A stretch of DNA of 64,000 nt from Felis catus (taxonomy: Eukaryota), in NCBI RefSeq assembly GCF_018350175.1, contig NC_058368.1, positions 51,461,815-51,525,814 on the forward strand, read 5' to 3'. The position numbers were made by a program, and so were the translations under genes. Positions 32,087-36,237 of the stretch are shown piece after piece (the stretch's first letter is position 1; each line of letters begins with the position of its first letter). The notes under the pieces are model-generated. The model saw only the letters and a list, made by a program, of their open reading frames with translations. It was not told where the DNA came from and did no database searches.

Positions 32087-32137
32087 ACACACATACATAC
32101 ATGCATACATACACACACACACACACACACGCGCGCG
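32087..32137. repeat. 51-bp perfectly alternating purine-pyrimidine tract (CATA/CA/CG)
   Basis: ACACACATACATACATGCATACAT(AC)10GCGCGCG. Confidence 0.97.
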
Positions 32138-32165: not shown

Positions 32166-32467
32166 CTGGAGGCTGGGTGTCCAGCGCTGCTGCCCCCTTG
32201 GTCCCTGTCACTGAGCGCAGCTGTGTAAATCCTCCGGTAGCGGTCGGCCAGGGCCCGGCCTGACAGCAGCAGCTGGTAGTGACCCCGGGAGTCCGCGGCC
32301 GGCAGCCCCAGCCCCAGCCCAGCGGCAGCCAAGGAGCCCTCCGGAACCGGCATGAACAGCGCCCCCGGCGCCGGGGAGGAAGAGATGGTGGCGGCTGGGA
32401 AGAATCCGTCCCCGCCGGGCCCCGAGGAGGCGGCGGCGGGGGAGGCAGTCGCTGAGCACATCATCAT
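32166..32467 (-). CDS. MYCBP2: MYCBP2 (E3 ubiquitin ligase PAM/Phr1) coding exon 1, 302 nt
   Basis: MMMCSATASPAAASSGPGGDGFFPAATISSSPAPGALFMPVPEGSLAAAGLGLGLPAADSRGHYQLLLSGRALADRYRRIYTAALSDRDQGGSSAGHPAS(R) is recognisably the MYCBP2 N-terminus; ends at donor CAG|GTGCGT. Confidence 0.97.
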
Positions 32468-32589
32468 CCTCGCAGCCGCCGCCGCCGCCTCGTCCCCGCG
32501 GGCCGGGCAAGCAGACACGCGCGCGCACACACAGCCCTTTTCCAACGACGACGGCTCCGGAGGCGGCCTCTGGCTCCCGCAGCACGAGA

Positions 32590-32673
32590 CTACAAAGACA
32601 GCGTCCTCCTTCTCCTCCTCCGTCTTCTCCTCCTCCCCCCTGCGCCGCCCTCGCCGCTACTGGGACCGCTCAT
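32590..32673 (-). other. Candidate uORF, 27 aa, MSGPSSGEGGAGGRRRRRRRRRRTLSL*
   Basis: Manual translation from ATG 32673-32671 to TAG 32592-32590; translation in vivo unproven. Confidence 0.55.
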
Positions 32674-34879
32674 CTAACCCCGCCACCTCGGGAGTGTGAG
32701 GAGGAGGCGGTGCCGCCGCTGCCGCCGCCGCCACCGCTGCCACCGCCGGGGCTACCCGCAATGGGAAGCTGCCGGCCGCACTGGGCATGCGCCACTCCTC
32801 GCACATGCTCAGTAACCCCAGCCCCTTTCCCTCCCCACCCCCCTCTCGCCACCACTCCCTCCGCCTCAGGGCTTTGGGTGTGGGGAGGTTGAGTGGTGAG
32901 GAATCTGAAAGAAAGCCACTTCTCCGGGTTTTACTAGCAGCTTGAGGAAGAGTAAGGAAAGCGCTGGGAAGGCTGTCAGCTACATGCTATTGGCATCAGG
33001 TAAAGGGGTTCCCTCCAGGTGGGAGAACTTGGACCAGAAAGAGGAAATGTCCCACCACCAGAGAATGAGTGTCACGCACTCCTGCTACTTTTTTCTCAAA
33101 GGTTCTGCTGCCAACATGAAGATTTACTGGGAACAGTGCTGGGTAATTCAGAATCCAAGGCAAAGGAGGCCAGCTAAATTAGAAGTCTCTGGCGATTTTC
33201 GTTTGTGGTTTTTATTATTAGGATTAAAATAGCTTTTACTTAAAAAAAAAAAAAACAGGTAGTAAGCTAGTGCATTCTCTTTTTCTATGAAAGTAGAATT
33301 GACAGATATGCGAGTATTCACAAGCAGGAATCATTCCTAAATTCTTGTTCTCAACATTTCATCATAGCTAAACCTTAATGTGATAGTACTTTTCTTACAT
33401 ATTATGTTGACTCCACATTCATCCTTTAGAGTGCACACTTCTCTCTTGGCAGTGGTCACTTGATGGCTCATCTTTTTCTGTCCAGACTTAACATTTCTAG
33501 AGATAATTCTCAAATATGACCTGAAGCTATAACTCTGGCTATTTGGAACATCTGAAAATGTCATATCTGCCAAAGATCTTATCATTGTTGTCTATTAAAA
33601 TGTGACATTTGCTGAGTCCCTTGTGTCAAGCTGTTCTACTAGTCCCTTCTAAGTAAGTGCACTAGAAATGTATGTGCCACTGAACCCTGACTGCTACTAA
33701 GTTTTATCCTTTTGAGACTCAGTTTGAAGAGTTTGCCTAATTTATACTCCTGTCATTTTAAGTCCTATCATTACCATTTTCTTTATCTACTTACTAGTTC
33801 TTAAATCTATGCTTTTTCCATAAATGTCCTCCTCCTCCTAAAACAAACAAAAAAAAAGCCTTTTTAGTGTTTTCAAAAGTACAAACAATGAGTAGGGAAA
33901 TAAATTAATTCTAGCTTTTGGGGGGAAAGAGTGCTGAAGCAGTGCATTTTACCTAGGGCTTTAACAGATGGAGATCGTGTTGGTTTAAAAAAAAAAAAAA
34001 AAGATAGCTACAAGCGGGATAATGAAAATATAGGGACAAAGGACTGGCATGGGAAGTCGGTGTTTTAGCGCTGTGAGTAGCCCTGTTAAACAGGTTTTGT
34101 ACTTGTTTCCTCAACTATGAGCTCATAAACAAGAGCTTCTTGTTTATCTTCGTGTCTTCCTCAGCCCCTAGCCTAGAAACTGGCACATAGTAGGTCACCA
34201 GTAATTATTTGTTAAACTAAATTCCTGTCCTAATGCTTCAGCAGTTATAAACCTCAGCATTGAACAGGAAGTGCTCCAAACCTATAGACAAGGTATAGAG
34301 GCAATGAAAGGCTAGTAGAGTTAAAGGCCTGAACAAGTATGAACTGCAAGGGCTCTTTACTGTTGAGCAGCCAGCCAGGTAGCCAAAAGGCTCTGACAAA
34401 CCAGAATTTAGATCCTGACTTTGCTATTTGTATGCCTTTGGGCAAGTTTCACCCTCTGAATAGTGGTCAAAAATAATATTGCATGAGACTGTGGAAGGAT
34501 TTCAAACATCTAGGATGTCCACCTTGGCACACGGCTTTTCACAAATTGTAACACGCAAAACAAAACATACTAGACTTTTCCTGAGGGCGGGAATGATACA
34601 TGTGTCTGTTCCCACGTTACATTCCCAGCTCCTAGCACAGGCTCTAGCCCTAAGCAGAAGGGAACCAGGTATTGGCTGAGTGAATGAATGAATGAATGAA
34701 TGAATGAATGTTGCCTGCACAGAAAAGCATTTCCAGTTCAGGTTTAGGTGGTGGCTTGTGCAGTCTTTGCCTTCTTGGAGTTTATAATGAGGATTGAACC
34801 CAGCGGCTGCACTGTTCTCAGAGTTCCTGCTATCCCTTAATTTCGCTTCAGTTTTCACCACAAGGCCCCTTTCTGAGCC

Positions 34880-35680
34880 TTCTGGGTACACGCAAAACCC
34901 GGTAACTGGATAATTTGCTAGGAACCCTGTTGTCGTTGAGTCGAGCAACTAGGCGTGCGCGGAGTCGCACACATGCTCACTTAGGTGGCCGAGAGTGGCG
35001 TTTCTGTTGCGGCTGGCCACATTTCCTTCCACGGCAGTGGCAACAGCCGCTCCACTCTAAATTGATAGTCAATGCAGAGTTTTTTCTCCTCCTCCGCCTC
35101 CTCTTCCTGCCTGGGCACTGCGTGCTCCCTGGGCAATGCTACAGCTATTGCCGTGGCAGCTGGGCACTTGGGAAGGCTCCCAAGGGGTTGGCAGGGAATG
35201 GAACGCGAGCCGGGAACGAAAGGGCGTTAGGAATCACCCTTAATTCCACTGTCAAGGGGATTTGAAGGGAGGGTGGTCCCCAAGGCAAGTCGCTAGGGTC
35301 CACCTGAACCGTTGCTGCAGAAGGGAGATGTGGATTTCTCGCAACGTGCAAAGCAAGAGTCCCCGCCCGCCAATCCTGCGCACACTGCTACTGGATGTCT
35401 TACACCGCCTAGGTGTTGAGATGGGGGTGGGGAGTCTTGTTATTACAGAAAATGCAGATTGAAAGAATATATAGAGAGTTTTGCTTTTGTTTTTCCAGCC
35501 CCAATGAGCGCAGCTCCTGTACTTTCCGCGCTGCCATCTTAGCTTTATCTTCTGGCCAGGCTGGGCGTGTGTGTGCCTTTGGTTCAGAGGGAGGGTGGAA
35601 GAGAGTGGGGGAGAGTGGAGGAAGCACTGGGCGGGTTGGGTGTCAGAATTGGCTAGACAGGACTTAAGGACGTCGCCCTG
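34880..35680. promoter_or_regulatory. Second promoter/enhancer-like CpG-enriched region
   Basis: Local CpG enrichment; GC boxes 35361-35368 and 35629-35635; CCAAT 35370-35374, 35501-35505, 35648-35652 (reverse); YY1-like GCCATCTT 35533-35540. Confidence 0.65.
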
Positions 35681-36237
35681 AAAGAATCACCCTCAAAGAT
35701 TAACGCTGAACTAAGGCATCCTGACTTTGCCCATTTTGTAAATGAAACACATGCGTAGTATTTTTTAGTCTTTGTGGTTGATAATCATGTTTATTTCTCA
35801 AAAGCATCTCTTGTCAATGATCATGTAAGACCCTGGCTTCTTCTTTCATACGTATGATCACATATTTTCTCTTCCATTTGAAATAGCAAAGCTGGGAGTA
35901 CAATTTCCTGAACTCCAAAGATTTAAGATTTTTGTACTCTGTATCTGTATCTTTTTGTACTCTATCTTGTGTTTTTTGTGTTTTGTTTTTTTTAAAGGAA
36001 GCCATCAGCACTGGTGTAGTAAATAACAGGCAGAAACATAAATGAGAACAATGATAGATGTTGTTAATTTCATTTAAAAGGTTAATATTGTACCAATGCT
36101 ATAGGATTACAAACACAGGAAGCACGCATGTTATGAGGAACATCAAGACTACTGAAAATGTTGTGGTCAAGTCAGGAGTTTGGGTTTGTTTCCCAAATTT
36201 GTACAACAGTGTTGGAACATTTAAAAACAAAATTGGT

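Follow-up and report, generated by a model that had tools for sequence, protein, structure and literature searches.

A conserved, coding-like deca-arginine upstream open reading frame in the MYCBP2 leader as a candidate cis-acting regulator of translation

Comparison with other species indicates that the 5' leader of cat MYCBP2 carries a real, conserved and coding-like upstream open reading frame (uORF), the 27-codon product of which, MSGPSSGEGGAGG-R10-TLSL, contains ten consecutive arginine residues. In our judgement there is an even chance that this conserved uORF is translated and works in cis as a limit and gate on main-ORF translation, and it probably helps to set the amount of MYCBP2 protein. 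The uORF lies on the minus strand of the window analysed here, a stretch of 64,000 nucleotides of the Felis catus genome (NCBI RefSeq assembly GCF_018350175.1, contig NC_058368.1, positions 51,461,815 to 51,525,814 of the forward strand), to which all positions below refer. An earlier note on this DNA had interpreted the uORF as a candidate ribosome-stalling or arginine-sensing element in the MYCBP2 leader. The leader position is supported, by homology to human and mouse, in our analysis, which adds conservation and a coding-like substitution pattern to this interpretation, whereas the proposed gating by AGA codons and their tRNA and the link to ZNF598 are not sustained.

The deca-arginine uORF and its place in the MYCBP2 leader

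The uORF translates as MSGPSSGEGGAGGRRRRRRRRRRTLSL followed by a stop codon (Table 1). Its first 13 codons are ATG AGC GGT CCC AGT AGC GGC GAG GGC GGC GCA GGG GGG, followed by the arginine codons AGG AGG AGA AGA CGG AGG AGG AGA AGG AGG (six AGG, three AGA and one CGG) and by the tail ACG CTG TCT TTG TAG. With arginine at 10 of its 27 residues, the product is enriched in basic residues. The upstream ATG (uATG) stands in a weak context (GGTTAG-ATG-A, with T at -3 and A at +4), and because an in-frame TAG adjoins it immediately 5', the frame is not extendable upstream. Both the start codon and the in-frame stop of the uORF lie 5' of the main MYCBP2 ATG at 32467, as in an AUG-initiated uORF. The main start, ATGATGATG, comprises three consecutive ATGs, and the main ORF reads MMMCSATASPAAASS at its beginning; since 206 nt separate the two start codons, the uORF and the main ORF are in different frames. 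The uATG is the sole ATG from 32785 down to the main start, the next ones 5' being at 32788 and 32806. On re-reading, the coordinates, peptide, arginine codons, weak context, 122-nt spacing to the main ATG and only-AUG claim of the earlier note all hold. The uORF region is a CpG island with a GC content of 0.66-0.74.

Table 1 Features of the MYCBP2 leader in the window
Feature	Position in window	Strand	Basis or remark
Inferred 5' end of the leader	32746..32770	-	25/25 identity with the gene-specific part of the human MYCBP2 5'UTR forward primer
uORF start codon AUG	32671..32673	-	Weak context, in-frame TAG directly 5'
uORF codons 2-13 (SGPSSGEGGAGG), conserved N-terminal part	32635..32670	-	Inferred synonymous excess in homologs
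Ten Arg codons (codons 14-23) in GGA/GAA triplet tract	32605..32634	-	Sequence, repeat finder, homologs
uORF tail TLSL and stop TAG (32592-32590)	32590..32604	-	Translation; stop in homologs
122-nt spacer from uORF stop to main AUG	32468..32589	-	Less conserved, frame-shifting indels between species
Main MYCBP2 start, three AUGs, first with A at -3	32459..32467	-	Human reverse primer match

The human MYCBP2 5'UTR has been cloned from RKO cDNA, with the primers given in the supplement (PMC10742948). The gene-specific part of the human forward primer matches the window without mismatch at what we take as the 5' end of the leader (Table 1; 0 such matches expected by chance), and the reverse primer matches 32438-32473, across ATGATGATG, at 35 of 36 positions. 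These matches confirm that the gene is MYCBP2, and the position of the forward primer places the beginning of the human leader, as cloned, 97 nt 5' of the uATG position. The corresponding cat leader, the 5' end of which is set by homology to human, spans 303 nt (32770-32468) and encloses the uORF. Among 24 sequencing runs listed for cat, 21 contain this stretch, with no RNA run among them. In mouse, the canonical Mycbp2 CDS starts at nt 284 of ENSMUST00000159855.8 (table of PMC13396407), so that the mouse leader is of similar length. By homology, these data support a position of the uORF within the leader as annotated in human and mouse, in agreement with the location that the earlier note had proposed.

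The two ATGs at 32806 and 32788 on the minus strand open a frame of 49 or 43 codons, respectively, which ends at 32657, 17 nt past the uATG, and both lie 5' of the cloned end of the human leader (32770). Transcripts starting further 5' would carry this frame as a second, overlapping uORF that bypasses the uATG of the deca-arginine uORF. Around the ATG at 32788, the sequence GCGCATGC is similar to an NRF-1 type palindrome.

Upstream of its start, the main MYCBP2 frame itself stays open as far as 32656, and the arginine run includes an ACG (32623) in a strong context, with A in position -3 and G in position +4. Judged from the reading frame, a 52-residue N-terminal extension of MYCBP2 starting at this ACG is possible in cat. 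As a conserved feature such an extension was ruled out, because the uORF region of the homologs described below stands in three different frame relations to the coding exon.

Conservation and substitution pattern of the uORF

Tandem Repeats Finder reports a period-3/12 TCC array on the plus strand at 32604-32636, which is a GGA/GAA purine tract on the minus strand. The three sense frames of this tract read poly-Arg, Gly/Glu/Asp and Glu/Lys, and an upstream ATG therefore falls in the arginine frame one time in three. A loose pattern that places ten AGR/MGR triplets up to 90 nt after an ATG, carries no frame or ORF condition and counts overlapping registers occurs 3038 + 11193 times in the 2.43-Gb cat genome, and the reversed-pattern control gives 6116 + 1647 matches there. 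From this sequence alone, the deca-arginine uORF is not beyond chance; what lifts it above chance is its conservation in other species.

The GC-rich region carries long spurious ORFs on the plus strand, which have been gene-called likewise on the contigs of other animals, and we read these antisense ORFs as a proxy for orthologous DNA. With the 114-residue antisense ORF at 32355-32699 (plus strand) as the query, 18 proteins were obtained among 66 candidates. A search of the 'longer' length class added one among 911 candidates, a representative library one further relevant protein among 6 hits, and a search with codon-aligned antisense frames one more among 4029 candidates, an NCBI model of Meriones unguiculatus (gerbil; P0024). 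This gave 21 orthologous antisense ORFs in total, consisting of the gerbil model and Logan/ENA ORFs, 19 of which cross the whole uORF and are informative. The other two, P0013 and P0020, were dropped, as they diverge in or next to the purine tract and then run into unrelated, AT-richer sequence. This probably reflects assembly joins at a simple repeat, although it could also reflect a real rearrangement or an alternative exon. P0023, a 3493-aa protein with 23% identity, is unrelated and was rejected as a homolog. Scans of metagenome contigs, one using a degenerate pattern for the main start and one using a 21-mer from the 5' end of the leader, yielded no orthologous DNA.

Depending on the frame of the antisense ORF, different positions of the uORF codons are visible, namely positions 1 and 3 in six homologs (f2 view), positions 1 and 2 in ten (f1 view) and positions 2 and 3 in three (f0 view). 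The codons of the homologs were inferred by single-step parsimony from the antisense protein calls rather than read from homolog DNA. Several homologs are close kin (P0009/10, P0017/18, P0015/16/19 and P0014/21), and counts of occurrences are therefore not independent. As gene products, the antisense 'proteins' that public collections hold over the MYCBP2 promoter and leader (P0003-P0022 and P0024) are almost certainly spurious calls in GC-rich DNA; the gerbil model among them is named 'serine/arginine repetitive matrix protein 1-like'.

In all 19 informative homologs the frame does not change between the uORF stop and the uATG, so that length differences within the uORF are whole codons. The spacer, in contrast, has taken frame-shifting indels, since three frame classes are seen among the homologs when the coding exon is taken as the reference. 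A stop codon (TAG or TAA) is the only possible reading at the uORF stop in 10 of 10 f1-view homologs, and the other nine are compatible with a stop. At the start codon, only ATG or ATH is possible in all ten f1-view homologs and ATG or GTG in the three f0-view homologs, and none of the homologs excludes ATG. Moreover, the ten f1 proteins all end at the same residues, which leaves only a pyrimidine at -3 (plus-strand stop) and A at +4 (Leu codon); the weak context of the uATG is thus kept. Start, frame and stop are therefore retained in other species, as in a conserved-peptide uORF, with the start compatible with ATG and the codons inferred. The earlier note had proposed to look for the AUG, the frame and the arginine run in other mammals; in the homologs AUG is compatible throughout, and frame, stop and basic run are kept in all 19 informative ones.

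The pattern of changes in codons 1-13, which precede the repeat, suggests a translated frame. Nineteen inferred synonymous third-position changes at eight sites stand against six other changes. Five of the latter, at three sites, are at codon position 1 (A11S, G12R and G13R), of which A11S is a non-synonymous change found in the closest relative, P0003, while G12R and G13R extend the arginine run; the only change at position 2 is S5N in gerbil. Per site-observation, the change rates at positions 1, 2 and 3 are 0.024, 0.006 and 0.162, respectively. Counted as variable sites, 8 of 13 third positions vary against 4 of 26 first and second positions (Fisher p 0.008), and when distinct sites are counted only in the views that see position 3, the contrast is 8 to 2 (p 0.055). 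Mismatches per antisense codon likewise number 4/130 where position 3 is hidden, as compared with 11/78 and 9/39 in the two views to which it is visible. Within the f2 view, the ratio of first- to second-base changes is 1:7 in the N-terminal part of the uORF and 9:13 in the spacer, a difference that is not significant (Fisher p 0.21) and makes this a weak control. The p-values based on occurrences (1.9e-8, 0.006 and 0.011) overstate the case because the homologs include close kin. With fewer inferred non-synonymous than synonymous changes, as counted by parsimony over partly related homologs, codons 1-13 appear to be under purifying selection, and the signal, which is consistent and points in one direction, suggests that the uORF evolves like a translated frame.

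In the arginine run, 26 changes in the homologs are synonymous (13 AGR/CGR and 13 AGG/AGA), and the replacements comprise six R>K, one R>P and one R>W. The run is about 7 to 11 basic residues long and is interrupted by P or W in two homologs. The AGR>CGR changes disrupt the purine tract yet preserve arginine. No AGA position is fixed, as AGA moves between homologs; in gerbil the data allow a single AGA, and CGN stands at four or five positions in one lineage. The tail is looser, with T, S, P or R at codon 24 and P in place of L25 in two homologs.

Proposed action of the uORF and alternative explanations

We infer that the uORF is translated, that it is repressive and that its arginine run causes a pause, and we propose the following course of events. 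Because the weak context is conserved, most scanning 43S complexes are predicted to pass the uAUG and to start at the main AUG triplet. A minority would start at the uAUG and make the 27-residue peptide, in which MSGPSSGEGGAGG is followed by the arginine run and a short tail. This peptide would still be inside the exit tunnel when the ribosome reaches the stop codon, the arginine run then being placed 4 to 13 residues back from the one in the P site, a position that may correspond, by analogy, to the geometry of known arrest peptides. The arginine run would then slow late elongation or termination, holding back the scanning complexes that follow, and resumed scanning and re-initiation about 120 nt downstream, helped by eIF4G2/DAP5 in human cells, would become limiting. 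A brake of this kind, which would act in cis, depend on the peptide and affect a minority of ribosomes, is the explanation that we favour over the four alternatives weighed below, and we rate its chance of being correct as about one half.

The leaky scanning and re-initiation suggested by the earlier note fit the weak context, the spacing of about 120 nt and the behaviour of the human leader. The translation efficiency of human MYCBP2 drops in DAP5 knock-out cells (log2FC -0.58, padj 1.4e-3; PMC9726905), and a reporter with the human MYCBP2 leader is eIF4G2-dependent (PMC10742948). eIF4G2/DAP5 is a factor for leaders that contain uORFs, and it promotes both leaky scanning and re-initiation according to the latter report (PMC10742948). 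Catalogues of translated ORFs were also consulted. Among the entries listed from the six supplementary files of a study of 7,264 human Ribo-seq ORFs (PMC10032668), there is no small ORF hosted by MYCBP2, and MYCBP2 does not occur in the supplement of PMC11057154. A mouse brain table (PMC13396407) has 314 'Mycbp2' rows, of which the 32 listed are long ORFs on non-canonical transcripts, and no uORF on the canonical Mycbp2 transcript is found among the rows listed.

An alternative that we consider unlikely, although it survives best, is that the uORF is a neutral by-product, in which a slippage-prone GGA/GAA tract in a conserved CpG-island leader happens to lie behind an ATG, and the resulting ORF, without a function of its own, is tolerated but rarely used owing to its weak context. 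The earlier note had kept such an origin as a fallback. The tract is indeed a GGA/GAA repeat, and several observations agree with this explanation: the one-in-three frame odds of a triplet tract, the thousands of genomic matches to an ATG-plus-(AGR)10 pattern, the fact that triplet repeats alter their length by whole codons regardless of translation, the absence of a MYCBP2 ORF from the PMC10032668 entries listed, and the p of 0.21 for the contrast with the spacer. The entire leader is conserved as well, with 17 mismatches in 123 antisense codons of its upstream part in the f0 view. A neutral tract, however, does not account well for the excess of synonymous changes in codons 1-13, which lie outside the repeat (19 occurrences to 6, 8 sites to 4), for arginine being kept despite purine-to-C changes, for the stop and weak context kept in 10 of 10 f1-view homologs, or for the finding that none of the 19 homologs has a frame-shifting indel inside the uORF whereas several have one in the adjoining spacer. 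A by-product is therefore now the less likely reading.

The conserved N-terminal 13 residues and the conserved identity of arginine fit a functional released product equally well as a nascent chain acting in cis. The 27-residue peptide might accordingly act elsewhere, for example by binding RNA or the nucleolus, with control of MYCBP2 being secondary. We regard this as improbable, since the run varies from about 7 to 11 residues, the tail is variable and the AUG context is weak. Moreover, a 2026 preprint reports that conserved uORF products, basic ones above all, accumulate very poorly (bioRxiv 10.64898/2026.08.12.739961), and the PMC10032668 entries listed hold no proteomic or Ribo-seq record of the peptide.

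The purine tract could instead matter as nucleic acid, in the form of a GGA-repeat quadruplex, a hairpin with the CCU tract or a protein-binding promoter-proximal site. In both the MFE and the centroid structures, CUCCUCCUC (32706-32698) is predicted to pair with the GGAGGAGGA at the beginning of the arginine run (about 32627-32635), and all three f0-view homologs retain the upstream CCU tract as well. PMC9726905 describes DAP5 targets with structured leaders. Against such an element, the whole leader folds no better than shuffled sequences (z +1.90; 96 of 100 shuffles at least as good), nor do the local 127 nt (MFE -46.1 kcal/mol, z +0.61; 143 of 200 shuffles at least as good), and the leader has no match in Rfam above E 0.48. 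In addition, AGR>CGR changes break the purine run and keep arginine, and the synonymous bias sits in the non-purine N-terminal part. We therefore give an RNA or DNA element little credence. The predicted CUCCUCCUC/GGAGGAGGA pairing encloses the uAUG in a large loop, in a fold that is no better than those of shuffled sequences.

The least probable explanation is that the uORF gauges arginine or tRNA-Arg, scarcity of which would cause pausing on the ten arginine codons and alter MYCBP2 output. Ten consecutive arginine codons would be a plausible gauge and the identity of arginine is conserved; arginine limitation leads to codon-specific pausing, and loss of the CNS tRNA-Arg(UCU) stalls ribosomes at AGA. 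The codons themselves, however, are not conserved, and six R>K replacements are seen in the homologs. As the arginine codons turn over, with no AGA position fixed, AGG and AGA exchanged and CGN in one lineage, an AGA- or tRNA-specific mechanism is disfavoured, and with it the gating through AGA and the CNS tRNA-Arg(UCU) that the earlier note had put forward.

Relation to known systems and significance

In the fungal arg-2/CPA1 system, the arginine attenuator peptide (AAP), a conserved short uORF peptide, stalls the ribosome at its own stop codon from within the exit tunnel and thereby blocks scanning. The MYCBP2 uORF resembles it in encoding a short conserved peptide with an arginine link. In contrast, the AAP is not known to contain an arginine run and senses free arginine via a specific motif, and it belongs to a fungal gene of arginine biosynthesis; no sequence likeness between the two is claimed. 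That the MYCBP2 uORF might be a functional mammalian counterpart of the AAP, an arrest-type sensor of arginine or charged tRNA-Arg that sets the level of MYCBP2 (PHR1), is very doubtful.

Closer relatives of the candidate cis-acting brake may be found among mammalian uORFs. The 2026 preprint (bioRxiv 10.64898/2026.08.12.739961) describes conserved, basic-rich 'translation-restricted' uORFs with lower downstream translation, of which a poly-Arg uORF of FZD1 is the extreme case, and deletion of its poly-Arg stretch restored accumulation of the product; the preprint covers 111 tested and 1,432 predicted uORFs. FZD1-type uORFs as described there share with the MYCBP2 uORF a conserved AUG uORF, a GC-rich leader and an arginine run. 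As far as the available text goes, however, the class also requires stable local RNA structure by absolute MFE, whereas the local fold of MYCBP2 has a z of +0.61 against shuffles; its read-out is product accumulation rather than stalling, and MYCBP2 is not named in that text. For the ESUCA set of animal conserved-peptide uORFs (PMC7530721), peptides conserved across taxa and sequence-dependent repression of the main ORF are described.

Slowing in polybasic stalls that lead to ZNF598-dependent ribosome quality control (RQC) has classically been proposed to result from a basic run inside the exit tunnel, which is also the cause proposed for the MYCBP2 uORF. Juszkiewicz & Hegde 2017 (PMC5316413) found in HEK293 cells that terminal stalling occurred with Lys encoded by poly(A) only and not with (CGG)20 or (CGA)10/20; in their conclusion, polybasic sequences may slow the ribosome without triggering RQC. 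Since poly-Arg encoded by CGG or CGA did not trigger it, ten mostly AGG/AGA codons are unlikely to do so, AGR not being among the codons used there. The link to ZNF598 drawn in the earlier note thus finds no backing there, as up to 20 arginine codons caused no appreciable terminal stalling in HEK293 cells (PMC5316413).

The target list of DAP5-dependent leaders (Weber et al. 2022, PMC9726905) includes human MYCBP2, and the MYCBP2 leader cloned in the work on eIF4G2-dependent leaders (Shestakova et al. 2023, PMC10742948) corresponds to 32770-32468, a stretch that contains the position of the uORF. Neither study describes a MYCBP2 uORF: the main text of PMC9726905 does not mention MYCBP2, and PMC10742948 gives the reporter only. 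Our literature search on MYCBP2 together with upstream ORFs found no description of the deca-arginine uORF. Conserved-peptide uORFs, basic 'translation-restricted' uORFs and DAP5-dependent leaders are thus known already, and the deca-arginine case of MYCBP2 is new.

The E3 ligase MYCBP2 (PHR1/PAM), very large and dosage-sensitive, controls axon degeneration, synapse formation and growth and several signalling pathways. Little is understood of what determines the amount of this protein. A conserved uORF would offer a concrete, mutable handle on MYCBP2 translation and is a likely explanation for the need of the human leader for eIF4G2/DAP5. The debate on polybasic slowing, in which reporters were negative for terminal stalling, would also gain a poly-Arg case that is natural and conserved. 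Were the uORF to sense arginine or tRNA after all, the supply of these would set the level of a neuronal E3 ligase that governs axon degeneration and synapse growth.

Two further features of the window flank the leader. A second GC-rich stretch at 34750-35750 (GC 0.52-0.55), about 2-3 kb 5' of the MYCBP2 start, may represent another CpG island or else a divergent promoter. On the other side, an (AC)n/ACACACAT microsatellite occupies 32087-32130, just within intron 1.
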